NCBI GenBank assembly: GCA_043808785.1
Contig: JAZDEL010000009.1
Span: 150,653-182,652 of the forward strand
Reading direction: 5' to 3'
DNA from: Candidatus Iainarchaeum sp.
Lineage (GTDB): Archaea; Iainarchaeota; Iainarchaeia; Iainarchaeales; JAZDEL01
Length of the DNA stretch: 32,000 nt
The notes below the pieces were generated by a model. The model was not told the DNA's origin and did not search any database. It saw only the letters and a list, made by a program, of their open reading frames with translations. Within the stretch, counting starts at the first letter, position 1; each line of letters opens with the position of its first letter. Positions 824 through 22,828 of the stretch are shown here, piece by piece. A program made the position numbers and the translations under genes.

Positions 824-1507
824 GTGCTGACTATCGTAGTGCCCTGCCACAATGAGGAACAGAACCTGGAGGAATGCATCCGCAGGGTTCCGCAGATGCC
901 GTGGGAAACCGAAATAATTGTGGTTGACGACGGCAGCACGGACCGAACCGCGCATGTTTGCCGCGGGGTTGCGGGGGAAGAAAGGCGGAAAGGCAGGGCC
1001 GTGCGGCTTGTAAGTTACGGGAAAAGCCGCGGCAAGGGGTTTGCATTGAGGCGGGGTTTGGAAAGCGCGAATGGGGGGGTAGTTGCAATACTTGATGCCG
1101 ACATGCAGAACCCGCCGGAGGAGCTGCCGCACATTGTGGAGCCCATAATGAACGGAAGTGCGGATTTTGTCAACACAAACCGCTTTGCGGGGGGAGGGCA
1201 CGGATTCAATTTTCATTCCGCAAGGAACAGGCTCCTCGCATTCTTCTTTGCGGGCATTACAGGCATAAATGTAAGGGACTGCCTGAGCGGAATGAAGATT
1301 TTCAGGGCGGAACCGCTGAAGGGGCGGCTTAAAGAGGACGGCTGGCCCGATTTTGAGCTGCTTGTGCTCGCAAAGAGGCGCGGGATGCGCATTGTCGAAC
1401 TGCCTGTCGCCTACGAACCGCGCGAAAGCGGAAAGTCGAAGATGCTTACCCTGCGCGGAAGCGCGGGGCTTTTCAGGGCTTTTGCAGCCTCGCTGCTGCG
1501 GCGTTAG
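824..1507 (+). CDS. Family 2 glycosyltransferase (dolichyl-phosphate sugar synthase-like, DPM1/AglD-type fold)
   Basis: 227-aa ORF with GTG start. The N-terminus TIVVPCHNEEQNLEECI...EIIVVDDGSTDRT and the DxD-type AILDADMQNPPEEL are classic GT-A/GT2 signatures. The C-terminal ...RESGKSKM resembles Dpm1-like enzymes. Confidence 0.85.
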   Translation: MLTIVVPCHNEEQNLEECIRRVPQMPWETEIIVVDDGSTDRTAHVCRGVAGEERRKGRAVRLVSYGKSRGKGFALRRGLESANGGVVAILDADMQNPPEELPHIVEPIMNGSADFVNTNRFAGGGHGFNFHSARNRLLAFFFAGITGINVRDCLSGMKIFRAEPLKGRLKEDGWPDFELLVLAKRRGMRIVELPVAYEPRESGKSKMLTLRGSAGLFRAFAASLLRR

Positions 1508-3468
1508 CCGCGTTTGCACTGCGCCGCGAATTCCGCGCCCGCGGAGCGCAAAATTGCGGCCTTTTTTTCAGGGAATTCGTAATACAGTTCGTCAAGCGCG
1601 CGGATTATCCCTGCGCAGCAGTCCGCACTGTGTGTGCTGCCGAATGCCGTGCACATTGCACTGAATTCCGCAGGCACGGGCCCGCGGCGGTAAATGCTTA
1701 TGTATGCCGCCCCCGCCGTGCAGTCGCCGTAAAACTCGGCGGGAGTGCCGGTGCATGCGCCCGAAATTGCGCCAAGCTCAAAGTAGCATGCATTTCTGTA
1801 GCGCGGGGAAAGCATTGCGCAGGTTTCGGGGGACTGCGGGATGTATGCTGCAAGGGTTTCGGCACAGCAGTCCGCGCAAACTCCGTCAAGCACGCCGCAC
1901 ATTGCGTTTGCGGTTTCAATGTCGCGCCCGTAGGCCATTGCAATGCCCCACACAATTCCCGAGTGGCAGTGTTTCCTGTATTCCGCGGGAACGGCGGCGC
2001 ACCTGCTGATGGCGCTCTCAAGGCGTTCGCTGCTGTTGCATTCCGTGCCTGCGCATCGCTTTGCGAATATCTCGCCATAGCCTATGCCCTGCCCCAGGCC
2101 CCAATAGCAGTGCGCCCTGTTCTGCGCGTCAAATTTCCCGCACTGTTCAAGCGCGGCGGGAATGTCCGCGCCGTGCATCCCGCCCGGCTTTTTGGCAAGC
2201 CAGCCATAACAGTAAGGCCTGTAAACAGAATCGCCGCCGAAATTGAGGTTGCCCGGCTTGATAAGTGCGAGGTTTGAGGCAAGGCCCGCAAGCAGCAGCA
2301 GGCAGATTGCGGCAAATGCCGCAGGCGCAGCCCAACGCGGCAGGCGCACCACCCCCGCTTTCGCTGTGAGGAGTGAGAACGCCTGCGCGATAATTATGAA
2401 CATAAAGGGCAGCAGCGGCACAAAATACCTGAATCCCTTGCCGCCGAATTCGGGATTGACGGTGAAACTGCCGAGGAGGTAGCCTGCGGAATAAATAATG
2501 AAAAATGCAATAGGGAATGCGGGCAAAAGGCTTTTTATGCCGCCGCTATGCCGTGCTTTGCCGAATAATGAAAACGCAACAAGCAGCAGGGAAAGCAAAA
2601 ACACGGCATAGTAAATGCAATTAAGCATCCAACCGTCCAAAAACAAAAGAGCCCTGAAATTCAGGGATGCGGGAAGTTCAACAAGGATGTAATTGGCTGT
2701 TTTCGCTGGCAGGGCCGCAAGCCTTTCCCCCGCGCCCGAAACAAACACGGCCCTTGCCTGAACAAACACCGAGGTGCCGTACGCAAGCGCATAGTAAATA
2801 GCGGGGCTGAATCCCGCAAGGAATGACGCCGAGAACACTGCAAAATTCCTGCGCAGGAAAAAGCCCCTGTCAATTGCAAGCCAAAAAATAATGCATGTTA
2901 TTAGCATCCCCGCAGTCATGCCCCCGAACCACAACGAGAAGCCCGAGGCAATGCCGAATGCCGCGAAGTCGCGCGCGCGGCTTCTGCCCCCGTAAAAAAT
3001 GCGGAAGAAGAGGAACATCATCAGGAGCGTCAAAAATGTGTCCTCAAACGCGTGCTGGGAAATCAGGCCGCGCACTGTGAAGAGCGGCGGGGAGAGCAGG
3101 GCAAGCAGGGAGGCTGCGATTGCGGTTTTCTTGCCGAAATATCTCCTTGAAATCAGGCAGATAAGCGCAAATGTGCCGAGGGAGAATGTGAAGAGCATCA
3201 TCAGCTTGAGAGTGAAGCCCGAAACCCCGAAAAGCGCAAAGAAGGGCGCAATCAGGAAGGGCAGGGAGAGCCCCGCGCCGTCGTAGGGCACCCACATGTA
3301 ATCAAAGTAGGGCATTCTCAAGCCCCGCATAAGCTCAAGCGCAACCGTGCCGCGCACGCACTCCTCGTAGTCAAAAAGTTCAAGGGATGTTGAGGCAATA
3401 AGAAGCCTCAATATGAGGAATGCGAGGACCAGTGCAATGAAAATTTTGCGTTCGATAACCCGTTCCAT
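1504..3468 (-). CDS. GT-C-like polytopic membrane glycosyltransferase (ArnT/PMT_2-like N-terminal region) fused to a ~240-aa cysteine-rich extracytoplasmic C-terminal domain
   Basis: Long ORF. The track starts it at TTG 3492; the first ATG is 3468 (MERVIERKIFIALVLAFLILRLL...), which leaves room for the divergent promoter. About 12 hydrophobic segments and an acidic first loop (ELFDYEEC...YFDYMWVPYDG) are typical of GT-C enzymes. The C-terminal 239 aa carry 19 Cys in repeated Cx(6-8)[RH]xxC[YHC]xG[LI] units. Confidence 0.7.
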   Translation of the reverse strand: MERVIERKIFIALVLAFLILRLLIASTSLELFDYEECVRGTVALELMRGLRMPYFDYMWVPYDGAGLSLPFLIAPFFALFGVSGFTLKLMMLFTFSLGTFALICLISRRYFGKKTAIAASLLALLSPPLFTVRGLISQHAFEDTFLTLLMMFLFFRIFYGGRSRARDFAAFGIASGFSLWFGGMTAGMLITCIIFWLAIDRGFFLRRNFAVFSASFLAGFSPAIYYALAYGTSVFVQARAVFVSGAGERLAALPAKTANYILVELPASLNFRALLFLDGWMLNCIYYAVFLLSLLLVAFSLFGKARHSGGIKSLLPAFPIAFFIIYSAGYLLGSFTVNPEFGGKGFRYFVPLLPFMFIIIAQAFSLLTAKAGVVRLPRWAAPAAFAAICLLLLAGLASNLALIKPGNLNFGGDSVYRPYCYGWLAKKPGGMHGADIPAALEQCGKFDAQNRAHCYWGLGQGIGYGEIFAKRCAGTECNSSERLESAISRCAAVPAEYRKHCHSGIVWGIAMAYGRDIETANAMCGVLDGVCADCCAETLAAYIPQSPETCAMLSPRYRNACYFELGAISGACTGTPAEFYGDCTAGAAYISIYRRGPVPAEFSAMCTAFGSTHSADCCAGIIRALDELYYEFPEKKAAILRSAGAEFAAQCKRG

Positions 3469-3515
3469 AATCAAAACTAATTTAAAGTGCAAAGTACATA
3501 TAAATATCTGGTTCC
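3469..3515. promoter_or_regulatory. Divergent archaeal-type promoter region with two TATA-like boxes
   Basis: 47-nt A/T-rich spacer aatcaaaactaatttaaagtgcaaagtacatataaatatctggttcc. TTTAAA (3481-3486) lies about 30 nt upstream of ATG 3516. ATTTATAT on the minus strand (about 3498-3505) lies about 30 nt upstream of ATG 3468. This implies short or absent 5' leaders. Confidence 0.45.
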
Positions 3516-3791
3516 ATGGCTCCGGAAAAAGTGTACTTTAGGGGGAAGAACATCCTGCGCAGGACTGTCGGGGGGAAAGAAATGATAGTGGATATTGGCA
3601 AGCAGACATTTTACCAGCTGAACACGGCGGGGACATTTGTGTGGGGGCAGATAAACGGCAGCAGGTGCACGGGTGAAATCGCGGCAAAGGTTGCAAAAAG
3701 GTTTGGCCTGCCCGAGGGGCGGGCAAGGGAAGATGTCGAGTCTTTCCTGAAAAGTATTGAAAAGGAAAAACTCGTAAGGCTGAAAGATTAA
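3516..3791 (+). CDS. PqqD-family protein (RiPP recognition element; lasso B1-like, located directly upstream of the B2-like gene)
   Basis: 91 aa. ...EMIVDIGKQTFYQLNTAGTFVWGQINGSRCTGEIAAKVAKRFGLPEGRAREDVESFLKSIEKEKLV fits the PqqD/RRE pattern (xYxLNxxGxxIWxxxDGxxxxxEIxxxLxxxYxVxxExxxxDVxxFLxxLxxxGLI). The stop lies 2 nt before the next gene. Confidence 0.8.
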   Translation: MAPEKVYFRGKNILRRTVGGKEMIVDIGKQTFYQLNTAGTFVWGQINGSRCTGEIAAKVAKRFGLPEGRAREDVESFLKSIEKEKLVRLKD

Positions 3792-3793
3792 GC

Positions 3794-4282
3794 ATGCTAC
3801 AGGAGATGCATATGCTTTTCAGGCTGAAGAAAAAGCACCTGCGCCAGGCATGGAAGATTGCTGCAAGCCCTTCGGATGCCCTTCTTTTCATAGGGATATT
3901 TTTCAGCATCATAATTATTTCAGCCCTGCTTAAATTTTCAAACAGGAAAAGGATTTTCGAGATTATAAAGCCGGGGCGGGTGTTCAGGCCCGCAAACACG
4001 GACGAATACTGCCTCAAGCTCCGCAGGTATGCAAACTTCCTTTTGTCAAGGCGCACGCCGTGCTTCAGGCTCACCTGCATGAAAAGGGCGATTGTTTACT
4101 ACATTTTTCTGAACATGGCAGGCATAGAATCAAGGCTGTGTTTTGGCGTGAGAAAAAATGACTGGGGGGATAAAGGTGCGCTTATGCATGCATGGGCAAG
4201 CGTGGGCAGCAAGCCCTTTCCCCCGAAAAGCGATGATGCCTCTGTTTTCAGGCAGGTGTGCTCGTTTCCCCGCGCGCGCTAG
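3794..4282 (+). CDS. Lasso-peptide B2-like transglutaminase-fold cysteine peptidase (McjB C-terminal / Transglut_core3-like) with an N-terminal TM helix
   Basis: 162 aa. TCMKRAIVYYIFLNMAGIESRLCFGVRKN...GALMHAWASVGSKPF matches the B2 signature CLxRALALxxLLRRxGIxAxLxIGVR...AHAWVExxG, giving the catalytic Cys and the HAW His. The N-terminal segment ALLFIGIFFSIIIISALLKF is a predicted membrane anchor. Confidence 0.75.
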   Translation: MLQEMHMLFRLKKKHLRQAWKIAASPSDALLFIGIFFSIIIISALLKFSNRKRIFEIIKPGRVFRPANTDEYCLKLRRYANFLLSRRTPCFRLTCMKRAIVYYIFLNMAGIESRLCFGVRKNDWGDKGALMHAWASVGSKPFPPKSDDASVFRQVCSFPRAR

Positions 4283-4431
4283 GAAACCAATACCTGGCAC
4301 CCGGCACCAGATGAGGCCTTCATGCAGGTTAATTTGGATGCATTTTTGTCAGCAACAGTGCATAGCGCGGCTGAAATTCTCTCAAATACCTCTTTGGACT
4401 CAATCGCCGGCTTTTCATATTTCCTCTTCAT
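4279..4431 (-). CDS. Candidate RiPP precursor peptide (50 aa): MKRKYEKPAIESKEVFERISAALCTVADKNASKLTCMKASSGAGCQVLVS
   Basis: I checked this codon by codon. The ATG at 4431 lies 7 nt downstream of the radical SAM/SPASM stop (4439-4441) on the same strand. It is the internal Met17 of the track ORF 4279..4479. The leader has Y5-x-x-P8-x-I10, matching the lasso leader motif YxxPxL. Using the Y(-17) spacing, Ser20 falls at -2 and the core starts at Ala22. The core has 3 Cys, many Ser/Thr/Asp/Asn/Lys and a C-terminal Ser. No database evidence. Confidence 0.5.
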   Translation of the reverse strand: MKRKYEKPAIESKEVFERISAALCTVADKNASKLTCMKASSGAGCQVLVS

Positions 4432-4438
4432 CGCAATA

Positions 4439-5524
4439 TTATGCACTTTTCTCTTTATTATTCTTTTCGTTTGCTGCAAGAGCCCTCCTTACGGCAAGCC
4501 TGTGAATCCTTGCCTGCCTGCAGCTTTCGCGCAACGGCATGTCAATGCCTCCCCCCTCAATCATTCTCAGCCCGGGGCAGGTAATGCAGTATGATTTCAG
4601 CCTGCAGGATGTGCAGGCTTCAAGTATTTGGCTTCCCGTTTCCCTTAGCTGTTTAAATGCTTCGGAATTATGCCAGATTTCCTTAAGGCTCCTTTCCCTT
4701 ATGTTGCCGCCCCATATCCTGCCCAGCTCTATGCATGGAGATACATCGCCATAGGGGGAGATGCGGCAGGTATTCCTCCCCGCATAACAGCCTATCAGGT
4801 AAATGGGCTCTTTGTTATTCTCGCGTTCGGCAATCCTGCGCAGGATTGGGGTTTTTGAGCCCTTAAACCTGTCTGCATGCCATTCCGCCAGCTCCCTGTC
4901 GGAGAGCCTGAATTTGCACGGCCCTAGGGAACCGTCGTTCTTGGGGGTAACAAGCGCGGTGTGTGAAAACGTAATCTTTTTTTTCCTGCAGTGCTCTTTC
5001 AGGGGGGCGAACTCCCCCGCGTTCTGCTTCATGAATGTGCTTTTTGCAACAACCTTAACCCTGCGCTTTTTTAGCAGGCGCATTGCCTCGATGGTTCTTT
5101 CAAGGGAGCCGGGCGTGCGTGTAATGCCGTCGTGTATTTCAGGCTTCAGGGAGAAGAGGCTTATCTCAACAGAGAGCGGGCTGAGGGATGCGAGTTTATC
5201 TGCCGCTTCCTCATCAATCAGCGTGCCGTTTGTAAGTATGCGTATGCCGAAGCCGCGTTTCCTTGCATAGCACGCTATTTCAAAGAAGTCCGCGCGCGCC
5301 AGCACCTCGCCGCCCGTGAATGTCAGAAAAAGGCAGCCCAGCTTTTCAAGCTGCCTTATTGCGGATTTTGCCTCCGCAGTTGTCAGTTCCTTTTCATGCC
5401 TTTGCACATTGTAGCACATTACGCAGTCCTGGTTGCATTTGTTTGTCAGCTCAATAATTGCCGAAATCGGGATGCACGCCTTTTCGGAATATCTCATCAG
5501 TTCTATGTATCCCATTGCCCGCAC
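4439..5524 (-). CDS. Radical SAM enzyme with C-terminal SPASM domain (peptide-modifying maturase type)
   Basis: 361 aa. The motif IELTNKCNQDCVMCYN gives CxxxCxxC. FLTFTGGEVL is a GGE-like SAM motif. SPASM cysteines: CRISPYGDVSPC (Gx4C), CTSCRLKSYCITC (Cx2Cx5Cx2C) and a later ESC. Confidence 0.9.
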   Translation of the reverse strand: MRAMGYIELMRYSEKACIPISAIIELTNKCNQDCVMCYNVQRHEKELTTAEAKSAIRQLEKLGCLFLTFTGGEVLARADFFEIACYARKRGFGIRILTNGTLIDEEAADKLASLSPLSVEISLFSLKPEIHDGITRTPGSLERTIEAMRLLKKRRVKVVAKSTFMKQNAGEFAPLKEHCRKKKITFSHTALVTPKNDGSLGPCKFRLSDRELAEWHADRFKGSKTPILRRIAERENNKEPIYLIGCYAGRNTCRISPYGDVSPCIELGRIWGGNIRERSLKEIWHNSEAFKQLRETGSQILEACTSCRLKSYCITCPGLRMIEGGGIDMPLRESCRQARIHRLAVRRALAANEKNNKEKSA

Positions 5525-5533
5525 CTTGCAAGC

Positions 5534-5809
5534 CTACTTTGATTTCATTACAAGCAGGCCTTCTTTCTCCAATTCATGCAGGAATTTCCGCACATCCCTT
5601 TGCACGGTTGTTTTTGCAGCATCATACTCCGCAAAGATTTTTTCAGCTATGCCGCGCTCGCTGTTCCTGCTGTTTATCTTTCCCCATATTCTGGTGCCCG
5701 AGGCATTTAGCGTATATGCGCGGTAATTGCCTGTTTTTATTATCATTGCCTTTTTGCCAATGGCTCTTGAGGCAGTATCATTAGCCCTGCACGGCACTGC
5801 CGCTTTCAC
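5534..5809 (-). CDS. PqqD-family protein (second stand-alone RiPP recognition element, upstream of the radical SAM gene)
   Basis: 91 aa. The GTG start overlaps the kinase-like stop (GTGA). ...MIIKTGNYRAYTLNASGTRIWGKINSRNSERGIAEKIFAEYDAAKTTVQRDVRKFLHELEKEGLLV fits the PqqD pattern. There is a 9-nt gap to the rSAM start. Confidence 0.8.
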   Translation of the reverse strand: MKAAVPCRANDTASRAIGKKAMIIKTGNYRAYTLNASGTRIWGKINSRNSERGIAEKIFAEYDAAKTTVQRDVRKFLHELEKEGLLVMKSK

Positions 5810-6732
5810 AGAATCCCCCCGAGTTTTGCCCCCTTTTCAAGGCAAAGTTCGTAGCACCTGCTTTGCATTGCGATTTCGCTGCACAAATTAAAAACTGCAA
5901 CTGTTTTCCCCCTGCTTTTGTTCATGTGTATCGCGCACCCCATTAGCATATGCAAGGCCTCGGCTTTCGGCAGTTCCGATTTTGAATTCCCGCGGCCTTT
6001 CTTTAGGAATAGGACTGAATCCATTTTAATGCCTTTGTTACTGCCGCGGTTCCCTGCAAGTGCGCCCCTGCCCCCCCAGAAGGGCGTGCCGAAAACGCGC
6101 AGCGTTTTGTTGACTTTGCGTATTGCGCAAATTTCATCATTAAGCACAAGCAGGCTCCTGCGGTTTGCCATTGAAATTGTTGTTTTGCCTGCCCCGCTCC
6201 TCCCCGGGAAAAGGAAGGCGCGGTTTCCCTTTGCAAGTGCGGCAGCATGCACAAGCATGCCGCCCCTCTCGGCAAGGAAAAAGGAGAAGCAGTTCCTGAG
6301 GAAGACATCCACATTGTCCTCCTGCCCCTTATGCACCCAGACCTTCCCCGCGCTATTTCCTGCATCAATCATGCCGCGAATAAACCCGCATTCAATGAAA
6401 AGCTTCTTCCCTTTTGCATTTGTGAATATTGTTGTGTTTTCCCTGCTTCCTATGCCGTTGGAAACGGCAACCTCGACGCAAAAATGCGGCTTTTGTTTTG
6501 AGCGGAAATCCCTGTACTGCTTGCCTATGTAAGAAATGATTTCCGGGCTGTCAGACATTATGCGTGTGCAGATTCCCGCAACTTCAACAAGGCGCGTTTC
6601 GCAGTTTTTCGGGGGCGAAAAATTCCTGAATTCAATCTCACGCTCAGCCATTGGGAACAGCGGCGGCGGCAGGAAATTTTTTTGCATTGCCATATGAAAC
6701 ACAACATCAAAAATACAACATCGAACCAACAT
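5806..6732 (-). CDS. HPr kinase/phosphorylase C-terminal-domain-like P-loop kinase (HprK-related, RiPP-associated type)
   Basis: 308 aa. GGMLVHAAALAKGNRAFLFPGRSGAGKTTISMA matches the HprK-like core (LHAxAv...G.a.ll.G.SGaGKST). The start is uncertain: ATG 6732, or the downstream Met at MAMQKNF or MAEREIEF. Confidence 0.7.
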   Translation of the reverse strand: MLVRCCIFDVVFHMAMQKNFLPPPLFPMAEREIEFRNFSPPKNCETRLVEVAGICTRIMSDSPEIISYIGKQYRDFRSKQKPHFCVEVAVSNGIGSRENTTIFTNAKGKKLFIECGFIRGMIDAGNSAGKVWVHKGQEDNVDVFLRNCFSFFLAERGGMLVHAAALAKGNRAFLFPGRSGAGKTTISMANRRSLLVLNDEICAIRKVNKTLRVFGTPFWGGRGALAGNRGSNKGIKMDSVLFLKKGRGNSKSELPKAEALHMLMGCAIHMNKSRGKTVAVFNLCSEIAMQSRCYELCLEKGAKLGGIL

Positions 6733-6828
6733 GAAGGCAGTTCCAAAAATAATTAAAACAAAGGTTTTAATATAACGGATTGCTAACTAATTACGAACTA
6801 ATTGCGCTGTAATTGTGTCGGTAATTAT
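6733..6828. promoter_or_regulatory. A/T-rich divergent promoter region with TATA-like boxes and an 11-nt-phased AACTAATT direct repeat
   Basis: AAAAATAATTAAAAC (6745-6759) and TTTTAATATAA (6765-6775) lie between the divergent starts at 6732 and 6829. AACTAATT occurs twice (6785-6792 and 6796-6803); the second copy lies about 26-33 nt upstream of ATG 6829. Confidence 0.4.
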
Positions 6829-7689
6829 ATGGGGCTAAAACTGAGGAAATCTTGGCTTGTACTGCCCGTGGCAGTGGCTGCGCTCGCGGTGATCATTGCG
6901 GCGGAACTCCTCTGGCTGAACCCCGATGCGGCGGAGGGGGACGGTTTAGCGGGGCCGCTTGGTTTGGATGCGGGAGGGCTTACTGCAAACGACCAGAACA
7001 AGGAAATTTGCGGGGAGGGATACTATTACACAATTGAGTTTGACTGCTGGCAGAAAAAGGACAATCGCTTCTGTTACGGGGTGAGGGAAAACCCCGCAGG
7101 TTACTGTGCCGGGCCGAGCAACTGCGGCGTGTCAGGCTGCTGCCCTAACCCGAATGACTGCAGGATGGATGGGCGTTGCTATGTCTCCGGAAAAGTCTTT
7201 ACCGGGGACATGTTAGGCATAATGTGTTATGAGGGAAAATTCGGCCTCTGCCGTGAGGATGACGTATGCGAAGAGGTAGGGGGTTATTACTGTACCGGGG
7301 ATACGTGGGTGGAGGAAGAGCCTGCAAATTGCGAGGGCGGGATTTCAATCAAGCCGCCGGAGCCCGAGGATAGCAATGCGGGTACTGAACCAAAAGGCGA
7401 CTGCCCCGAAGGCGAATTTTACCGCGGCGAGTGGGACTGTTTCGAGCGGGGGGATGATGAAAAGTGCGGCTCCGCGGATGCGGGGCACGGATGCTGCGCT
7501 TCCGAGGGGCAGTGCTGGTTCGGGGGAAGGTGCTATGCGGGGGGGAAGCCGCTTTCTGAAAGTTCGGAGTGGATATGCACGGAAGGGATGTGGGATAAGT
7601 GCATTGCTGATGACAGGTGCGAAAAACAGGGCACGTACCTGTGCAATGGGCTGGTGTGGTCTGCCCTGGCGCCCGAGGGGTGTGAATGA
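6829..7689 (+). CDS. Secreted or N-terminally anchored cysteine-rich protein with an internal tandem duplication (two ~95-110-aa Cys-rich domains)
   Basis: The track begins at TTG 6802. ATG 6829 gives MGLKLRKSWLVLPVAVAALAVIIAAELLWL, a signal or anchor sequence. Domain A spans nt 7009-7332 and domain B spans 7402-7683. Both share CxEGx[YF]Y...[FW]DC[WF]...GCC...C...GRCYx[SG]GK...[MI]CxEGx[FW]xxCxxDDxCExxGxYxCxGxxW...CE. I recognise no family. Confidence 0.7.
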   Translation: MGLKLRKSWLVLPVAVAALAVIIAAELLWLNPDAAEGDGLAGPLGLDAGGLTANDQNKEICGEGYYYTIEFDCWQKKDNRFCYGVRENPAGYCAGPSNCGVSGCCPNPNDCRMDGRCYVSGKVFTGDMLGIMCYEGKFGLCREDDVCEEVGGYYCTGDTWVEEEPANCEGGISIKPPEPEDSNAGTEPKGDCPEGEFYRGEWDCFERGDDEKCGSADAGHGCCASEGQCWFGGRCYAGGKPLSESSEWICTEGMWDKCIADDRCEKQGTYLCNGLVWSALAPEGCE

Positions 7690-8407: not shown

Positions 8408-11400
8408 ATGGATAATAAGGGTTATCCGCGCACTGCGGGCAGAGGCGCGGGAAGGGGCTTTGCGGGAAAAAGCCGCGCAGGGGGCTTTGCGTTATTTTTG
8501 CTGGCAGTTGCAGTGCTCGCGCTTGCCTCTTATGCAGGCGCCTTCTGCATAACCAATGCCGAGTGTGCGGCAATAAAATGCCCGCCAGCGGCGAACAAGG
8601 ACACAACGCTCTGCAACAGCAAAACAGGGCAGTGCTACTGCGGGCCGAAAACCTGCGGGAACCTCGGCTGCGACAGGGGGGAAAACTTCATAAACTGCCC
8701 GTCGGAGTGCGCTGCAGGCTGCGGAAACCTCAGCTGCGAGCTCGGGGAAAACGGCAGGAACTGCCCCGCTGACTGCAGGGCTGTGTGCGGCAACAAGGTG
8801 TGCGAAACAGGGGAAACCGAATCAAGCTGCTTCTCGGACTGCGGGGGGAAACTGGACTGCTGTGAATATTCCACTGATGCGTATGCGGGCAAGGGGGCGT
8901 GCGTGTTATACTGCGCTGTGTGCGGCGACGGCTACTGCGACAGGCAGAGGGGCGAGGACAGGCTGACCTGCAGCAGGGATTGCGGAATGGCGGGCTGCGG
9001 CGACGGCATATGTGGAGCGGATGAGGACGCGCTGAACTGCCCTGCCGACTGCCCGAAGGCGGAACTGGCGTGCGACGTGAACGCGCACTGCAATAAGCTT
9101 CCGAGCTGCAATTACGCGCCGCACGAGGAGAACATATATTACCTTGCTGAAAAGCCTGTCTTTAATGTGTGCAGCTGCATCACGGGAATGTGCGCAATAA
9201 CCCTGCGCGCCCGCGATATTTGCGGCGACGGGTTCTGCAGCAGGGACGAGAGTTGCGACCCGACATTCGACAATTTCTGCAACCAGGACTGCGGAACATG
9301 CAGGCTTCCGGACCTTGCACTGGCGGGGCTGGAGGCCGACAAGGCTGTCGCTGAAAGCGGGGAAGGGGTTGCAATAACCGCCGCAGTAGAGAACCTCGGC
9401 TCAAAGGAGGCGGGCAAGTTTTCAATCTCGGTTTTCAGGGGAAGCGAGGGCGGGCAGATGCTTGAAACAGCGGAAATCCCCGGGCTGTTCCTTACCCCCG
9501 GAACAGGCGAAGAAAAGGTAGTAAGGTTCGGGAGCGAGGGGCAGCAGGGCGTGGCGCCGCTTGCAGTGGAGTTCGAATTCAGGGCTGAAGAGGGGAAGAC
9601 TGTCGAGAGGTACGACCTTGATTTCGACGGGGATGGGACTTTCGACCTTTCGCTGAAGCCGCCTGTTTCAAAGGTTTCGCACACATACGGAAAGCCCGGC
9701 TTTTACAGGGCCACGACAACCGTAAGGTATGCCGACGGCAGCGGCGGGGAGAGCAGCGCGAACATAACCGCGCTTGAGCCGCAGCTGAGGCACACATTTA
9801 ATCTTGACACAACAGGGATGTGTGGGGAGGTTCTGCTTGTCGTGAAGGCGGATGCGGAAGGGATTATTTCCGAGGCGAGCAGGGAGAACAACAGCAGGGC
9901 AATAGCGCTTAACATAAACTGCCCTGCGCTGCCCGTTGCTGTGTTCACGGTTTCTCATGAGGGTAGGTTTGCGAAGTTTGACGCTTCCGCATCGCACAGC
10001 GATGAGGGCGATATCGTGCAATACAGGTGGGATTTTGGGGGCGGAAAAACAATTGAAGCGGCGGATGCAATTGCGGAGCACACATATGAAACGGACGGCA
10101 ATTTTTCAGTGAAGCTTGTTGTAGTGAATGCAGGCGGCAAGAAGGGCGCCGCTATCAAAAATGTTGTTGTCGGCACCCCCCCAAGCGCGAAAATAAGGCT
10201 CACTAATGGCAGCGGAATCGTGCCGCTGAAGATAGGGGCTGATGCCTCTGCGTCCTCCGACAGCGACGGGGAAATAGTTTCATACGCCTGGAAGTTCGGG
10301 GACTTGGAAAGCGCTGAGGGCATTCAGGCTGAGCACACATACCTCTCCCCCGGAGTTTACTCCCTGCTGCTCGAGGTTGTCGATGATGCGGGCCTGAGGG
10401 GAAGCGCTGTTTCGGAGGTTGTTGTTTTCGGCTCGCAGAAGGCGGACATTGCCATAAAAATGCCGGCGCAGCCGGGCGATGTGGAACGGGAAAATGAAAT
10501 TACTCTTGAGTTTTTGCTTTCAAACATCGACGGCGGGAATGCGGGGGCATTTGATTTAGTGCTGAGGGAAGGGAAGCCCGACGGGAAAGAAGTCGCAAGG
10601 GAAAGCGTGCAGGGCATTAAATCAACGGAGTCCGTAACCGTAAAACTGAAAATAAAAACTCCCGAGGACCTCGGGCCCGTGGATTATTATGTTGTTGCCG
10701 ACCCCGAAGACAGGGTAAGGGAATCGAACAAACGCGACAATGTGCTGCAGATTAGCCTGAATGTCATCCTGCCCGAGATTTGCGGCAACGATACGGATGA
10801 TGATATCGACGGCTATGTGGATGAGGGCTGCGGGGTAAGCGTTGAGGTATGCGCGAACAAAATCGACGATGATGGGGACGGGAAAATTGACGAGGGCTGC
10901 ACGTGGACAGAGGCAATACTTGAGGGCGGGCATCTCATTGTTTCCGCAAAGGAGGAAGTGGTTACTGGGGAGCGGGCTGTTGTTGAGGTAAGCCACCCTC
11001 GGCTTGGGCCTGTTGAGGGTGCGGAACTTAAAATTATTTCACCGCAGGGGAAGGAAACGCGGCTGGCAACGGACAGCGAAGGGAAAGCCGTGCTTATGCT
11101 GAACGAGGTCGGGGAATACGCGCTTGTTGCGACAAAATACACGCTCAGGACAAGCCAGGGGCTGGCTGCGGTTTCGCAGGCAATGATTGCGGAAAGGCTT
11201 GCCAAAGTCCTGCCTGTTGCGCTGTTCGGGCAGGTTGCAATCGACCAGCCGCTGCTGATAATGCTGCTGCTTGCTTTGTGCGCGCTTGTTGCTGTGCTTG
11301 TTTTCGAGAGCGCGGAGCGGCTCTTCACAGAGGCGGAGTATGTGCCTGCCGAGGCACGGCAGAAGAGGGCGTTGAAATATGCCCTTGCGCTTGCGGTTGC

Positions 11401-11569
11401 AGCGGTGCCGCTGCTGATTAACAAGGTATACGGCTTTGAATTCGGCACTGGAGTTGCCGCGGCAGGCCTGCTTGCAATGCTTTTCATCACATACAGCGCA
11501 AGAAAGGTCGACAGGCCCTGGGAAGCGGAGGGAGAACAAAGGCAGGAGGAAATGTTCCCGCCGGAATGA
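8408..11569 (+). CDS. Very large surface protein: N-terminal anchor or signal, six CG[ND]xxC..E..C..DC cysteine repeats, CARDB-like and three PKD-like domains, acidic DDD/DEGC motifs, Ig-like domain, three C-terminal TM helices
   Basis: The track starts at TTG 8399; the first ATG is 8408. Cys repeats include CGNLGCDRGENFINCPSEC, CGNLSCELGENGRNCPADC, CGNKVCETGETESSCFSDC and CGDGICGADEDALNCPADC. PKD-like segments include FDASASHSDEGDIVQYRWDFGGG...HTYETDGNFSVKLVVVNAGG and ADASASSDSDGEIVSYAWKFGD...HTYLSPGVYSLLLEVVDDAG. CARDB-like: VAITAAVENLGSKEAGKFSISVF. The C-terminal hydrophobic helices are followed by a charged tail. Confidence 0.85.
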   Translation: MDNKGYPRTAGRGAGRGFAGKSRAGGFALFLLAVAVLALASYAGAFCITNAECAAIKCPPAANKDTTLCNSKTGQCYCGPKTCGNLGCDRGENFINCPSECAAGCGNLSCELGENGRNCPADCRAVCGNKVCETGETESSCFSDCGGKLDCCEYSTDAYAGKGACVLYCAVCGDGYCDRQRGEDRLTCSRDCGMAGCGDGICGADEDALNCPADCPKAELACDVNAHCNKLPSCNYAPHEENIYYLAEKPVFNVCSCITGMCAITLRARDICGDGFCSRDESCDPTFDNFCNQDCGTCRLPDLALAGLEADKAVAESGEGVAITAAVENLGSKEAGKFSISVFRGSEGGQMLETAEIPGLFLTPGTGEEKVVRFGSEGQQGVAPLAVEFEFRAEEGKTVERYDLDFDGDGTFDLSLKPPVSKVSHTYGKPGFYRATTTVRYADGSGGESSANITALEPQLRHTFNLDTTGMCGEVLLVVKADAEGIISEASRENNSRAIALNINCPALPVAVFTVSHEGRFAKFDASASHSDEGDIVQYRWDFGGGKTIEAADAIAEHTYETDGNFSVKLVVVNAGGKKGAAIKNVVVGTPPSAKIRLTNGSGIVPLKIGADASASSDSDGEIVSYAWKFGDLESAEGIQAEHTYLSPGVYSLLLEVVDDAGLRGSAVSEVVVFGSQKADIAIKMPAQPGDVERENEITLEFLLSNIDGGNAGAFDLVLREGKPDGKEVARESVQGIKSTESVTVKLKIKTPEDLGPVDYYVVADPEDRVRESNKRDNVLQISLNVILPEICGNDTDDDIDGYVDEGCGVSVEVCANKIDDDGDGKIDEGCTWTEAILEGGHLIVSAKEEVVTGERAVVEVSHPRLGPVEGAELKIISPQGKETRLATDSEGKAVLMLNEVGEYALVATKYTLRTSQGLAAVSQAMIAERLAKVLPVALFGQVAIDQPLLIMLLLALCALVAVLVFESAERLFTEAEYVPAEARQKRALKYALALAVAAVPLLINKVYGFEFGTGVAAAGLLAMLFITYSARKVDRPWEAEGEQRQEEMFPPE

Positions 11570-11617
11570 TGTTCTTCGGGTGCAGAAAGTTTATTCCCAA
11601 AGTCTGCCGAATTTGCC

Positions 11618-12061
11618 CTACTCCGCGCTTGCCCCGCTTCCCTTTATCCAGAAAAAGGCTTCCTGCCCGCTTCCACTGTATGACGCCACAACCCTTATTT
11701 TGAAAGGGTATGTTCGAAGTTCGGCAGGCACGTCAAGGGCTGCGGGAACTTCAATGCTTTTCCCCGCAGGAACGAAAATATCCCCGCTCTTTATCAGCGT
11801 GCCCGCTGCAAAGAACCTGACGGCGTAATTCATGTCCCTGCCCTCCCGGTTTTCAATGCCGTATGTGAATACTGCCTTTCCGCCCCTTAGATAGCTGTCC
11901 CAGCTGTCGTGCACAAGGTAAACCGCTGTGCCGTGTTCTGGCTCATTGTAAGCGAGCATAACAAGCAGGGCAACAAGGCTGCCGGCTATAATAAGCGCAA
12001 CGGTTGCCCTAAAAGCGAGGTTAACCAGTTCAGTATTTTCCTTTTCAGTTGCTTGGTTCAT
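11618..12061 (-). CDS. DUF1616-like protein, C-terminal (TM plus extracellular beta-rich) half
   Basis: The ATG at 12061 overlaps the upstream stop (ATGA). MNQATEKENTELVNLAFRATVALIIAGSLVALLVMLAY is a TM segment. It is followed by ...FTYGIENREGRDMNYAVRFF..., which resembles the NhEg...Y.v motif of archaeal DUF1616 proteins. The family call is from memory. Confidence 0.55.
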   Translation of the reverse strand: MNQATEKENTELVNLAFRATVALIIAGSLVALLVMLAYNEPEHGTAVYLVHDSWDSYLRGGKAVFTYGIENREGRDMNYAVRFFAAGTLIKSGDIFVPAGKSIEVPAALDVPAELRTYPFKIRVVASYSGSGQEAFFWIKGSGASAE

Positions 12062-14101: not shown

Positions 14102-14926
14102 CTAATAGCCCTGCACGCTCATAACCCTGAAGAGCCTGCGGAAAAGGTAAACCGCCGCAAGAGGCGCGACAACCGCAAAGAAGAGCAGGTACATCAGCGG
14201 CTCGAAAGGCACAATGCCGTGGAGCCATATCGACCTGATTACATTAACGCCCTGATATATGGGGTTGAAGTACGCTATCGTGGGGAGGATGCCGCCTATC
14301 GCGCCGAACTGCGGCACGCGCAGCACCTCAAGAGGGTAATAGAAGCACGAGAAAAACACGACAACAATCCGCATATAGCCGAAGAGCGGGACAAAGTTCT
14401 CGTTGAACAGGCCTGCACAGCCGACAATGAGCCCTATGCTCAGCGAAACAGTGAAAAGGAGCAGGAGCGCAAAGAGCACAAGCGCGAGATTGACGAAAGA
14501 AATCGGCATCAGGAAAAAGCAAAGCGCAAGGAACATCAGCGTCGAAGGGAAGAGGGAAATAGCCTCCGCAAGCCCCACACCGAAGATGAGCGAGAGCCTG
14601 TTTATGGGCGCGAGCAGGGTTGCATCAACGGTCTGCCAGTATTTCTCCGCGGTGAACTTCTGCAGGAACGTGGACCATCCGCTGAAAAAGAACACGTCCG
14701 CAAGCATGCCGAGCACAAGGAAAACAACGAAGTTCTGCGAGGTTACCTCGTTGCCTATTGCGGCAGTGCCCTGCCCCAGAAGAAAGAAGCCCCAGTAAAC
14801 CAGGAGGAACGGCATTATGCGCATCAGCGGGGAAATCATGCTGTCCGCGAAGAATGCGAACTTGAAACGCATGGCAAGCGTTGTTTCCTTCTCGCCTATG
14901 GCAAGCGACTCGTCTATTATGCTCAT
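14102..14926 (-). CDS. ABC-2 type transporter permease
   Basis: 274 aa with six TM segments. EKYWQTVDATLLAPINRLSLIFG matches the ABC-2 motif (E...GTlE.ll..P.sr). It overlaps the upstream ATPase gene by 4 nt. Confidence 0.8.
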   Translation of the reverse strand: MSIIDESLAIGEKETTLAMRFKFAFFADSMISPLMRIMPFLLVYWGFFLLGQGTAAIGNEVTSQNFVVFLVLGMLADVFFFSGWSTFLQKFTAEKYWQTVDATLLAPINRLSLIFGVGLAEAISLFPSTLMFLALCFFLMPISFVNLALVLFALLLLFTVSLSIGLIVGCAGLFNENFVPLFGYMRIVVVFFSCFYYPLEVLRVPQFGAIGGILPTIAYFNPIYQGVNVIRSIWLHGIVPFEPLMYLLFFAVVAPLAAVYLFRRLFRVMSVQGY

Positions 14927-15918
14927 ACAACAGACCTCGCGGCGGTGAGCCTGACAAACACGTCTATAAGGCTGGGCTGCTCCTCGCGTATTGTCGTTAT
15001 CTTATAGCAGGAGAGGAATGAAAGAAGGTCGGGCAGGAATTTCTTGTCCTCGAGAAGGACGCGCACCCCGACCTCGGAAAGTTCAACCGAGTGTATGTAG
15101 TCCTGCTTCCTGAGCTGACCGAGCACGGATTCGTCGACATAGCTCAGCCCGATATCAACAGCAACATTCTTTGCAATAACCTTCTTCAGGTTTGCGGGCG
15201 TGTCCTCCATCACAAGCCTGCCCCTGTTCATTATGCCTATCCTGTCGCAGAGGTCGTTCGCCTCGTCCATGTAGTGCGTCGTTATGACAACCGTTTTTTC
15301 CATTTCCTTTATTAACTGCCTTATCTGCAGGGATATTTTCGGGTCAAGGCCGAGCGTGGGCTCGTCAAGGAACAAAATATCGGGGTCGTGCAGCAGTGCG
15401 CGCGCAAGCGCAAGCTTTGATTTCATTCCCGAGGAGTAATGCTCCACATATGAATCAAGCCACTGCCCGAGGCCTAAGAAGTCTGTAAGTTCGCGTATGC
15501 GCTCATCAAGGTTTTTCACCTTGTAGAGCTTGCCGAAAAACCTGAGGTTGTCCCTGCCCGTCATCCTGTGGTAAATCATCGAGAAGCCGAACATGACGCC
15601 TATGCGCTGCCAGGCTTCCTGCGGGGGCCTGCCCTCTATAACAACCCTGCCTTCGGTCGGCGTAATCAGGCCGACAAGCATCTTTGTTGTTGTTGTCTTT
15701 CCCGCGCCGTTGGGGCCGAGGAGGCCGTAAATCTCGCCCTCCTTTATCCTGAGCGAAACATCATCAACCGCACGGAACATCTGGTGCTGCGGGAAAAGGA
15801 AATCCACGAACATATTTCCCGTGTGCTGCGCCTTCGAATAGGTTTTCACAAGGTTGTCGGCTTCGATTACGTAATCGCGCTTCTTTACCCCTGCTTCTAC
15901 CTCGAGGCCGAATGGCAT
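14923..15918 (-). CDS. ABC transporter ATP-binding protein (ABC-2/DrrA-like exporter ATPase)
   Basis: Walker A GPNGAGKTT, Q-loop region, signature YSSGMKSKLALARAL, Walker B ILFLDEPTLGLD, H-loop ITTHYMDEA. Confidence 0.92.
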   Translation of the reverse strand: MPFGLEVEAGVKKRDYVIEADNLVKTYSKAQHTGNMFVDFLFPQHQMFRAVDDVSLRIKEGEIYGLLGPNGAGKTTTTKMLVGLITPTEGRVVIEGRPPQEAWQRIGVMFGFSMIYHRMTGRDNLRFFGKLYKVKNLDERIRELTDFLGLGQWLDSYVEHYSSGMKSKLALARALLHDPDILFLDEPTLGLDPKISLQIRQLIKEMEKTVVITTHYMDEANDLCDRIGIMNRGRLVMEDTPANLKKVIAKNVAVDIGLSYVDESVLGQLRKQDYIHSVELSEVGVRVLLEDKKFLPDLLSFLSCYKITTIREEQPSLIDVFVRLTAARSVV

Positions 15919-16098: not shown

Positions 16099-16884
16099 AT
16101 GCCGTTTGGGATAAAGTTTCCGGAAGAGCTTTTGCAAAGCGAAAAACGGGCGAAAGAGCGCGAGACCGCGCTGCCGCTCCGTGTCCCCGGGCTTGACGCA
16201 ATGATAAGCAGGCACGGCATAGAACGCGGCTCCACTCTCCTTATTTCCGGCGGCTGCGGCACGGGAAAAAGCACGCTCGTGCTGCAGTCAATTTACAACG
16301 GCATGCTAAAGGGCGAGAAGGCGGTTTACATTTCATTCGAGCAGGAGGTTGCGGCAATAAAAAAGCACGCAAGGGTTAACTTTGGCTGGGACCTCGAAAA
16401 AATGGAGCGCGAGCGCAGGCTTTTCATGCTGCGCATGGACCCTTTCAAGATTGCGAGAAGCGTCGAGGCGTTCCTTGCGCAGAAGAAGGGCGACCTGCTT
16501 GTGAGCGTGGATGAAATCGAGTTTCCGTTCATACCCGACAGGATTGCCATAGATTCATTGTCCGCACTGAACATCGCCTTCATGGGAAACATGGAGAACT
16601 ACAGGTACTATGTGAGTTACATGTTCGACATGCTGAACAGGTACAACTCGCTGAACTTTGTTGTAAGCGAAACCGAGCTCACAGCGGGAACATACAGCAA
16701 GACCGGCATTGAGGAGTTCCTTGCCGACGGCGTAATTGTGCTCTACAACACGAGCGAGAATTTCGGCGGCGAAAGGAAGCGCGCGCTCGAGATACTGAAG
16801 CTCAGGTTTTCCGAGCACGTGCACAGGCCAGTGCCTTTTAAAATCGGGAAATCAGGAATAAGCCTGCAGAAGCAGGGGATGTAG
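16099..16884 (+). CDS. KaiC/RecA-superfamily single-domain ATPase
   Basis: 261 aa. VPGLDAMISRHGIERGSTLLISGGCGTGKSTLVLQSIYNGMLKGEKAVYISFEQ is the KaiC-domain N-terminus with its Walker A. Walker B-like RIAIDSLSAL. The C-terminal RALEILKLRFSEH matches the KaiC-like R.l.I.K.Rgs.h. Confidence 0.85.
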   Translation: MPFGIKFPEELLQSEKRAKERETALPLRVPGLDAMISRHGIERGSTLLISGGCGTGKSTLVLQSIYNGMLKGEKAVYISFEQEVAAIKKHARVNFGWDLEKMERERRLFMLRMDPFKIARSVEAFLAQKKGDLLVSVDEIEFPFIPDRIAIDSLSALNIAFMGNMENYRYYVSYMFDMLNRYNSLNFVVSETELTAGTYSKTGIEEFLADGVIVLYNTSENFGGERKRALEILKLRFSEHVHRPVPFKIGKSGISLQKQGM

Positions 16885-22119: not shown

Positions 22120-22828
22120 GGTCGAGAGGGCATGGACGCACTTTCAAAAAAAAATAGGCGCGTTCATCAAAAACCCGAAATTTGCAATCGCGCGGCTGTT
22201 CGGCAGGAGGCGCGGCTGGCAGGAAAGCGGCGAAGGCGGCGGGCTTAAGGCGAAAAACTACATGAGTTACGGGGAATACCTCGCGCACCAGAAATCGAAA
22301 CTCGGGCTGATGCGGAAAGAAACACTCCTCAAACACGATGAAAAATACCGTCCCGCGCTCATGGAAAGGCTTATGGGGAACGGCATCGCGAAGCGGGGCA
22401 TGAACGTGCTCTGCCTGGGCGCGCGCACGGGCGCGGAGGCAAAGTCCTCCCTCGACCTCGGCTGTTTTGCGGTCGGCATAGATATCAACCCGGGAAAGGA
22501 AAACAAATATGTGCTTTACGGGGATTTCCATAAAATCCAGTTCCCGGCGCAGAGCGCGGACATCGTATTCACTAATTCCCTCGACCATGCCCTCGATTTC
22601 GGGCTGCTTATGAGCGAAATAAAAAGGGTGCTCAAGCCCGAGGGCAGGCTGATAATAGAAATCGCTGATAAAAAAGAGATGCCATGCCCCGGCTATTACG
22701 AGTCTGCGGCGTGGGAAAGCGCAGGGGACATAATTTCATTGTTCCTGAAATCCGGCTTCAGGGCGGAAAGCGAGTCGCGCTTCAGGGTTCCCTGGGAAGG
22801 CAGGCATTTTTCGCTTGCGTTTGAATAA
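22112..22828 (+). CDS. Class I SAM-dependent methyltransferase
   Basis: Motif I is VLCLGARTGAEAKSSLDLGCFAVGIDINP; the post-I/II region is IVFTNSLDHALDF...VLKPEGRLIIEI. The ATG at 22112 overlaps the upstream gene by 8 nt. An alternative start is Met51 (22262, MSYGEYLAHQKSKL). Confidence 0.8.
   Translation: MREVERAWTHFQKKIGAFIKNPKFAIARLFGRRRGWQESGEGGGLKAKNYMSYGEYLAHQKSKLGLMRKETLLKHDEKYRPALMERLMGNGIAKRGMNVLCLGARTGAEAKSSLDLGCFAVGIDINPGKENKYVLYGDFHKIQFPAQSADIVFTNSLDHALDFGLLMSEIKRVLKPEGRLIIEIADKKEMPCPGYYESAAWESAGDIISLFLKSGFRAESESRFRVPWEGRHFSLAFE

Follow-up and report, generated by a model that had tools for sequence, protein, structure and literature searches.

A candidate RiPP precursor gene beside radical SAM/SPASM, PqqD, ScmC-like, and lasso-type B2 genes in a DPANN archaeon

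Results

A short ORF next to a radical SAM/SPASM gene

Within a 32,000-nt stretch of contig JAZDEL010000009.1 from a Candidatus Iainarchaeum genome (the whole analyzed stretch, called the window here), a 50-aa open reading frame (ORF) lies among genes for a radical S-adenosylmethionine (rSAM)/SPASM maturase, two PqqD-family proteins, a lasso-type B2 cysteine protease, and an ScmC-like P-loop protein (Table 1). Its ATG (4431-4429) comes 7 nt after the rSAM/SPASM stop on the same strand, as described in a first-pass annotation made from the sequence alone, which left unstated that this is the minus strand; the stop is at 4281-4279, and the minus-strand translation of 4279-4479 reads ...IAMKRKYEKPAIESKEVFERISAALCTVADKNASKLTCMKASSGAGCQVLVS*. 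That annotation also called the ORF unannotated, which proved wrong: a homology search found an identical 50-aa protein in NCBI, hypothetical protein V1676_06415 on a 182-kb contig of a Candidatus Diapherotrites metagenome-assembled genome, although looking up the exact peptide sequence among contigs gave no match. The comparisons described below show that the ORF is a real, conserved coding gene, probably for the precursor (A) peptide of a RiPP (ribosomally synthesized, post-translationally modified peptide) pathway that depends on a RiPP recognition element (RRE).

Table 1. Features of the window at and around the candidate precursor gene. The archaeal trio comprises the window peptide and its orthologs in loci L001 and L002.
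Feature	Position	Strand	Description and evidence
Precursor peptide gene (probable)	4279..4431	-	50 aa + stop, MKRKYEKPAIESKEVFERISAALCTVADKNASKLTCMKASSGAGCQVLVS; orthologs, selection on the leader, profile match
Predicted leader, residues 1-21	4369..4431	-	20/21 residues invariant in the archaeal trio; putative 21/22 boundary
RRE-type motif Y5-E-K-P8-A-I10 in leader	4402-4419	-	[Y/W]xKPx[ILVF] motif family-wide; S20-A21 also in leader
Predicted core, residues 22-50 + stop	4279..4368	-	C24, C36, C45, C-terminal S50
Radical SAM/SPASM maturase	4439..5524	-	361-aa ORF (NCBI 358 aa); Pfam Radical_SAM 1.9e-26, SPASM 3.1e-13
PqqD_a, discrete PqqD-family RRE	5534..5809	-	91 aa; Pfam PqqD 1.2e-14; partner of the rSAM and kinase-like genes
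ScmC-like P-loop protein, PEPCK/HprK kinase fold	5806..6732	-	Longest ORF 308 aa; NCBI model 281 aa, ~5806-6651
PqqD_b, second PqqD-family RRE	3516..3791	+	Pfam PqqD 1.2e-13; directly upstream of B2, like B1 in lasso clusters
Lasso-type B2 cysteine protease, transglutaminase-like	3794..4282	+	162 aa; NCBIfam lasso_biosyn_B2 (NF033537) 45.2 bits vs cut-off 33

Orthologs and coding constraint

Two archaeal loci carry an orthologous ORF downstream of the rSAM gene, as the first-pass annotation had expected of related loci. In L001, a 2.4-kb contig, the ortholog (1225-1380; 66% identity in a protein search) lies between rSAM/SPASM and convergent B2 genes; in L002, an uncalled 49-aa ORF, MKAKYEKPAIESKESFERISASLCLTTRTSSRPTCQKVSGTNCPAAKLS (9196-9345), follows an rSAM gene whose product is 61% identical to that of the window, and B2 comes next. 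Residues 1-21 are nearly invariant across the three peptides, and the rest varies except for C24, T35-C36, K38, the third Cys, and the terminal Ser, with the switch from conserved to variable falling at residues 21/22; alignment of the Cys residues with L002 needs one or two single-residue indels. The residues Y5, P8, I10, S20, C24, C36, C45, and S50 of the window peptide are all among the invariants of the trio, which also include K7, A21, T35, and K38. A conserved leader joined to a hypervariable core that keeps its three Cys in both orthologs reads as the classic RiPP pattern, and the proposal that the ORF encodes a precursor-type peptide is borne out. The three archaeal loci are close relatives and therefore count as about one observation; scans of metagenome contigs with the trio peptide alignment and with a B2 alignment gave no confirmed further relatives.

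The reading frame also bears marks of selection. Over leader codons 1-24, synonymous differences exceed non-synonymous ones at 8:3, 13:3, and 9:3 in the three pairwise comparisons among the window, L001, and L002, and by these counts the leader is under purifying selection. Conservation is confined to the 50-aa form: in both L001 and L002 an in-frame stop lies upstream, with no start codon between it and the ATG (TAA triplets lie just 5' of the ATG in L001), so the upstream extension of a 66-aa form beginning at TTG is not conserved, and we rejected that longer form. The conditions that the first-pass annotation had named as refuting a coding ORF of 50 aa (no conserved short ORF in related loci, no coding constraint, conservation of the 66-aa frame only) are thus answered in favor of that form. 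Because the conserved frame is on the minus strand, we took the antisense plus-strand ORFs at 4158-4505 and 4322-4594 to be spurious. A scan for sigma-70 promoters and terminators is uninformative for an archaeon.

A profile hidden Markov model (HMM) built only from 58 bacterial peptides of the family described below placed the window ORF at the top of 648 ORFs in the three archaeal loci (E=9e-9), with the next unrelated ORF at 0.46. Since a bacterial-only profile ranks it first, the window ORF is a divergent member of a large conserved family. The window peptide and five bacterial relatives had no NCBIfam or Pfam match, even at E<=10. Beyond that lack of a curated family and the small size, nothing speaks for a chance ORF or a small non-RiPP protein, and we give this explanation practically no credence in view of the selection on the leader, the position conserved across loci, the bacterial-only profile match, and the pairing of conserved leader with variable core.

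A bacterial family of related loci

To place the archaeal peptides among more distant relatives, we used 42 aligned rSAM homologs to search a set of genomes that held one for each species. The 80 bacterial loci recovered came mainly from Terriglobia/Acidobacteriota, Omnitrophota, Thermoanaerobaculia, and Nitrospirota, and their rSAMs share 29-41% identity with that of the window. Family counts come from profile searches of all ORFs in 85 non-redundant loci (three archaeal, 82 bacterial). At least 63 of the 85 loci have a homologous short ORF, detected by the peptide HMM, on the same strand as the rSAM gene, either directly downstream of that gene or ~1.6 kb upstream of it, in which case the peptide ORF precedes the ScmC-like and PqqD genes as well as any SpI-like gene. 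Examples are ...KPYEKPSFRHEQVFETMALSCGKITGTLGQCQFSGKTS, ...KPYEPPQLVTISLRPEEAVLGHCKNASGGGPTPGCGMILGGCHSIGS, and ...KPYTKPKIVYEKRIETLAAVCNSRWVGAGGTCCMKQTCQKRSS.

These peptides share a signature of a [Y/W]xKPx[ILVF] leader motif, a Cys-containing core, and a terminal Ser. The YxxPx[I/L/V] motif noted at first pass is thus conserved across the whole family, with YEKPAI invariant in the trio, and the C-terminal Ser, likewise noted then, is near-invariant (60/61 unique peptides, compared with 11% of 7,711 background short ORFs). All 61 unique peptides have 2-4 Cys, and the first Cys lies 18-20 residues past the motif Tyr in 59 of them.

The companion genes are nearly as constant. ScmC-like genes occur in 79 of the 85 loci and accompany the peptide in 62 of 63; PqqD genes occur in 78, NTP_transf_5 genes in 31, and a ~180-aa protease, whose best matches are signal peptidase I of the archaeal type (SpI; TIGR02228, 1e-7) and Peptidase_S24, in 62, all bacterial (62/82). 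Lasso B2 is found in three, namely the window, L001, and L002, and an HMM for the SpI-like protein finds none in these three. B2 and the SpI-like protease never share a locus among the 85.

Within the bacterial peptides (loci L004-L086), the terminal Ser stands at a constant C+5 relative to the last Cys in a three-Cys 'AVLGxCK...GS' group and, for the most part, in the Omnitrophota group; in a two-Cys 'ALSCGK' group the spacing is C+7 or C+8. A Lys stands one or two residues past a conserved Cys (CK, CGK, CxK) in nearly all groups, and the window peptide has C36-x-K38. The fixed Cys-Ser spacing and the Cys-Lys element suggest a defined ring or recognition element.

One further locus, L003 (476-6489), has an rSAM of 43% identity; its peptide lies upstream of the rSAM gene, ends in ...DRRDS, and has a WNKPKV leader motif. 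Additional enzymes encoded there are a MiaB-like rSAM, a GNAT acetyltransferase, and a B12-binding rSAM. The rSAM homologs P0019, P0020, P0051, P0069, and P0115 are among the family members labeled 'AdoMet-dependent heme synthase' in JGI annotations. Given the RiPP context of these rSAMs, that label is probably a mis-annotation inherited from similarity of the N-terminal half to AhbD/NirJ.

The peptide family is widespread and apparently undescribed. Full-text literature searches on combinations of HPr kinase, SPASM, radical SAM, PqqD, and SynChlorMet returned no description of it, the rSAM-RiPP compendium PMC10288494 mentions no kinase, and the graspetide survey PMC8939145 mentions no HPr kinase.

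Maturation enzymes encoded around the peptide

The rSAM/SPASM protein carries CxxxCxxC at C29/C33/C36 and seven C-terminal Cys, all invariant. It reaches no NCBIfam equivalog cut-off; in NCBIfam, its N-terminal half comes closest to NirJ2/AhbD and its full length to MftC, the mycofactocin maturase, and its best PDB matches are SkfB and PqqE. The conserved Cys residues of the peptide are its likely substrates.

PqqD_a and PqqD_b are 34% identical to each other, and both score best against the lasso PqqD models in NCBIfam. Among PDB chains, PqqD_a matches best the lasso RRE TbiB1 (8.5e-7), followed by 9x8z_B ('PqqD family protein'; 1.3e-5), and PqqD_b the lasso PqqD chaperone 9x90_B (2e-4). The earlier suggestion of a lasso-type B1 RRE therefore agrees with the closest matches of both proteins, and that of a lasso B2 peptidase with the score of the convergent gene, which lies above the curated NCBIfam cut-off. 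B2 also matches Pfam Transglut_core3 (5e-11) and conserves C95, H132, and D147 in all three orthologs; it has no sequence match in the PDB. In the window, PqqD_b and B2 form a B1-B2 operon.

The ScmC-like protein weakly matches the NCBIfam families HprK_rel_A, HprK_rel_B, and ScmC, and its homologs carry PF27840 'ScmC'. Its sequence matches the PDB only over the P-loop region, and a fold search was needed to place it: an AlphaFold2 model built with 50 homologs (predicted local distance difference test score, pLDDT, 91.8) has ATP-dependent phosphoenolpyruvate carboxykinases (PEPCKs) as its top Foldseek matches (E 2e-9). HprK/P belongs to the same structural superfamily as PEPCK. H135, GxSGAGKT, and D172 are invariant, and on the modeled structure the protein is a P-loop phosphotransferase by fold.

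Leader sequence and leader peptidase vary together

The recently described pathway for linear polyphosphorylated peptides (LPP; LppA/K/B/S/N; Popov et al., Nat Commun, May 2026, PMC13381572) offers a reference for the leader: there, YxxPxVLxHQxIxFETxxS is cut after FET in an RRE-dependent manner, and core Ser3 is polyphosphorylated. The corresponding leader segment in Terriglobia relatives, ...YEKPSFRHEQVFET..., includes HEQVFET. The window segment YEKPAIESKEVFERISA does not fit the LPP consensus; it has YxxP and VFE but is two residues shorter and carries Arg for Thr(-1), and the Terriglobia leaders come closer. Where the SpI recognition triplet is FET, the archaeal trio reads FER (in VFER-ISA), the distance from Tyr to Cys is 19 rather than the 18 of FET/IET-type bacterial leaders, and Ser occupies Y+15 (lasso position -2) in all three loci with B2 and otherwise in a single bacterial peptide, from L011, compared with Ala in 52 of the 61 unique peptides. 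Because FER for FET, the longer Tyr-Cys distance, and Ser at Y+15 accompany B2, we infer a swap of the leader-peptidase module in which the leader was retuned to B2. The Diapherotrites loci keep the ScmC-like protein, an RRE, the rSAM, and the peptide, and have B2 and a second RRE instead of the SpI-like protease. From the sequences, the A21|A22 site predicted at first pass, which coincides with the turn from conserved to variable residues in the trio, is the best guess for cleavage.

The B1/B2 pair might instead be the remnant of an unrelated lasso cluster next to a real rSAM-pathway precursor, with another protease cutting the leader or the leader staying in place. The pair does lie on the opposite strand, and in L002 arginase-family and NTP_transf_5 genes (9958-11916) sit between B2 and the B1-type PqqD. 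We nevertheless regard this explanation as improbable: B2 adjoins the peptide gene tail to tail in 3/3 archaeal loci, its Cys, His, and Asp are conserved, the SpI-like protease, encoded in 62 of the 82 bacterial loci, is absent precisely from those that have B2, and the trio shows both the change from FET to FER and the Ser at lasso -2. In two of the loci, the stops of the convergent peptide and B2 genes overlap in a CTAG palindrome (4279-4282 in the window, 1377-1380 in L001), so the two transcripts must overlap or end inside one another; in L002, the genes are ~90 nt apart and the stops do not overlap.

The core is not that of a lasso peptide

Given B1, B2, the YxxPxI motif, Ser at Y+15, and the Ala1 and Asp7 of its predicted core, the window peptide could be taken for a true lasso precursor, cut by B1/B2 at A21|A22, closed between Ala1 and Asp7 by a cyclase encoded elsewhere, and tailored by the rSAM and the kinase. 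The lasso ring and the Asp at core position 7 had both been raised at first pass, and neither held up. The 32-kb window has no Asn-synthetase-type cyclase or PP-loop ORF, L002 has no Asn_synthase-like ORF, and just 2 of the 87 related loci contain a PP-loop ORF; Asp28 aligns with Ser in L001 and with Arg in L002, with no acidic residue at core 7-9 in either ortholog; and 62 bacterial relatives use an SpI-like protease without B2. Since neither the window nor L002 has a cyclase and Asp28 is not conserved, we rejected the lasso-peptide reading, which we rate as very improbable. The lasso likeness is limited to the leader/RRE/B2 module.

The two PP-loop (SGGxDS) ORFs are in L060 and L067. That of L060 (1757-3376, plus strand; 539 aa) is the only one of SGGLDS form, is possibly Asn-synthetase-like, and lies ~2.6 kb upstream of the rSAM gene; L060 could be a locus co-located with a true lasso cluster.

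Role of the terminal Ser

The terminal Ser is most likely the target of the kinase-fold protein, because it is the only Ser conserved family-wide and because paeninodin-type systems provide a precedent. In those systems, the HprK-like kinase acts on the linear precursor and phosphorylates the C-terminal Ser specifically, requiring that residue and little else, after which a nucleoside triphosphate (NTP) transferase can add one or more hexoses onto the C-terminal phosphate (PMC8498205).

A different assignment, which we think unlikely though worth weighing with care, keeps the peptide as a real precursor and gives the terminal Ser to the rSAM/SPASM enzyme, either for an MftC-like C-terminal modification or for a crosslink from the last Cys to the C terminus, the ScmC-like protein then acting on Ser20 or another junction Ser or not on the peptide at all. 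MftC, the best full-length NCBIfam match of the rSAM, modifies a C-terminal residue; by inspection, the C+5 spacing from last Cys to terminal Ser is fixed in two bacterial subgroups and the window; LppK and BsfK phosphorylate core Ser3; and the ScmC-like protein is only distantly HprK-like. Against this, the exact C-terminal Ser is what paeninodin-type kinases need, the ScmC-like gene is a companion of the peptide in all but one of the 63 loci, and no other Ser is family-wide, the junction Ser being absent in the AVLGHCK group and replaced by Ala/Thr in part of the ALSCGK group. Our preferred assignment remains the terminal Ser as the phosphorylated residue.

Genes surrounding the cluster

Glycosylation and export genes lie around the cluster (824-1507, 14102-15918, 22112-22828, 23906-24751, 29963-30904, and 30901-31866); of the surrounding genes, an AglJ-like family 2 glycosyltransferase (GT2), a GT1, and a methyltransferase were scanned, and the rest, an ABC-2-type exporter pair among them, were assigned by sequence inspection alone. 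The setting mirrors that of LPP and paeninodin clusters, which are reported to lie inside capsular-polysaccharide loci (PMC13381572).

Two proteins flank the cluster. Divergent from PqqD_b/B2, a 662-aa protein (1504-3492, minus strand) has a multi-helix hydrophobic N-terminal part and a Cys-rich C-terminal part, and no Pfam or NCBIfam match. Divergent from the ScmC-like gene, a 295-aa Cys-rich protein (6802-7689, plus strand) is apparently secreted, has an internal duplication (two CxxGxxW...C modules), and has no family match; its counterpart occupies the same position in L002 (5922-6779, minus strand), beside a 166-aa membrane protein and a ~1050-aa PKD/CARDB protein. Farther along the window are a KaiC-like ATPase (16099-16884) and two paralogous surface-type proteins (16931-18736 and 20866-22119, both plus strand) with weak MG2-domain matches, an apparent C-terminal hydrophobic segment, and a charged tail.

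Discussion

Proposed pathway

We propose a pathway in which, on the pattern of lasso and LPP systems, the discrete PqqD RREs would take up the leader segment Y5-x-K-P8-x-I10 as a beta-strand. PqqD_a would hand the peptide to the rSAM/SPASM enzyme for modification of Cys 24/36/45, most likely to thioether-type crosslinks, and the ScmC-like phosphotransferase would phosphorylate the C-terminal Ser, the only family-invariant Ser, in the manner of paeninodin-type kinases. PqqD_b, acting as B1, would then pass the modified peptide to B2, which would remove the leader at or near A21|A22. On this proposal, the Diapherotrites lineage would have exchanged an SpI-like protease for the lasso B1/B2 pair, with neither a macrolactam nor a lasso fold being made.

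Several considerations weigh against this scheme. Crosslinking of the Cys residues, phosphate transfer to the terminal Ser, and removal of the leader by B2 near A21/A22 are all steps that we infer. In both LPP (PMC13381572) and Bsf (PMC10368454), the phosphorylated residue is core Ser3 and not a C-terminal Ser, and Ser20 near the junction is an alternative kinase target. The resemblance of the ScmC-like protein to HprK-related families is weak (E ~1e-7 over ~45 residues), its closest folds are PEPCK rather than HprK/P, and NTP_transf_5 is absent from the window. As the rSAM reaches no equivalog cut-off and is closest to MftC and SkfB/PqqE, C-terminal chemistry or C-C/C-O crosslinks are as open as thioethers. 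Finally, Ser for Thr at -2 and the B2 cut site both depend on three closely related sequences, from the only three archaeal-type loci known.

Implications

More tentatively than its status as a precursor gene, the ORF may be the archaeal member of an undescribed RiPP class, spread over Acidobacteriota, Omnitrophota, Nitrospirota, and other phyla, in which the phosphorylation logic of phosphorylated lasso peptides and LPP (a discrete lasso-type RRE together with a PEPCK/HprK-fold kinase and, in some loci, an NTP transferase) would act on an invariant C-terminal Ser alongside rSAM/SPASM crosslinking of Cys, with an interchangeable leader peptidase. If so, the cluster would yield a crosslinked peptide whose C terminus is phosphorylated, perhaps also phosphoglycosylated, and which is possibly tied to the nearby cell-surface glycosylation genes.

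The peptides supply a precursor family with a simple signature for a large set of orphan rSAM/SPASM, PqqD, and ScmC-type clusters, which databases label 'hypothetical' or mislabel 'heme synthase', and link the LPP and phosphorylated-lasso pathways to rSAM chemistry. The archaeal cluster would also be a natural case of leader-peptidase exchange, from an SpI-like protease to lasso B1/B2, in which the RRE-binding motif is kept, useful for matching RREs to proteases and for engineering. With its many members and crisp signature, the peptide family lends itself to experiment. DPANN archaea have very small genomes, and the locus would represent a RiPP pathway in one of them; our literature search found no RiPP report for DPANN.

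Comparison with known systems

Several known systems share parts of this cluster. The SynChlorMet cassette (TIGRFAM ScmC/ScmD/ScmE/ScmF) and GeoRSP have in common with it an ScmC-type P-loop protein, a PqqD-related protein, and an rSAM/SPASM enzyme. The present cluster differs from SynChlorMet in having one rSAM rather than two, and its proteins fall far short of the SynChlorMet cut-offs (ScmC 24.9 vs 125, ScmD 22 vs 100, ScmE 111 vs 400). To our knowledge, no precursor or product has been described for SynChlorMet or GeoRSP cassettes, and we found none in the literature on SynChlorMet, HprK-related, and GeoRSP systems.

Sactipeptides and ranthipeptides (subtilosin/AlbA, SkfB, freyrasin/PapB) likewise have an rSAM/SPASM enzyme with all its auxiliary-cluster Cys, leader recognition that depends on an RRE (predicted here), and cores that contain Cys, and the window has the make-up of an rSAM/SPASM RiPP locus, with an rSAM and SPASM enzyme beside an RRE (PqqD) and a precursor with three conserved Cys. 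The RRE here, however, is a separate lasso-like protein and not part of the enzyme, those systems have nothing that corresponds to the kinase-fold protein or the terminal Ser, and no curated sactipeptide or ranthipeptide model reaches its cut-off.

Closer are the phosphorylated lasso systems (paeninodin, pseudomycoidin, Bsf), which share the B1 RRE and B2, a YxxPx[L/I/V] leader, and, as a possible counterpart of their HprK-like kinase, the ScmC-like protein, and, for the paeninodin type, the C-terminal Ser, which there is the phosphorylation site of the linear precursor. Both the kinase and B2 of the Bsf system require B1; there, the YxxPxL motif occupies -17..-12, and BsfK phosphorylates core Ser3 (PMC10368454). 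The present cluster differs in having no cyclase, no conserved Asp/Glu at core 7-9, an rSAM/SPASM enzyme as the core maturase, and Ser in place of Thr, Ile, or Val at -2.

LPP comprises the RRE LppB, the HprK-like kinase LppK, the NTP transferase LppN, the archaeal-type SpI-like peptidase LppS, and a transporter, and is reported only in Bacillota, often within polysaccharide loci, in a paper that makes no mention of radical SAM (PMC13381572). Shared with it are a discrete lasso-like RRE predicted to bind a [Y/W]xxP leader, a P-loop kinase-fold protein that may be of HprK type, an NTP_transf-type transferase, the ...H-x-Q-x-F-E-T leader segment of the Terriglobia relatives, and a setting among glycosylation genes. 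In the window, the RRE is present, and the ScmC-like kinase-fold protein (PF27840) is only weakly HprK-related. LPP precursors, by contrast, are 35-200 aa with long cores, no reported Cys pattern or terminal Ser, and phosphorylation on Ser3, whereas the additions in the present family are the rSAM/SPASM enzyme, the 2-4 conserved Cys, and the C-terminal Ser, which is near-invariant. Neither the SpI-like protease nor the NTP transferase is present in the window; L002 has NTP_transf_5.

With the lasso-core features failing and the cyclase absent, the nearest described relatives are therefore the LPP and phosphorylated lasso systems and not lasso peptides proper. The bacterial relatives amount to the LPP toolkit joined to an rSAM/SPASM enzyme and a Cys-containing, Ser-terminated core, and the cluster in the window is best compared to an rSAM-bearing relative of the LPP and phosphorylated-lasso systems, with a B1/B2 protease, in a DPANN archaeon.

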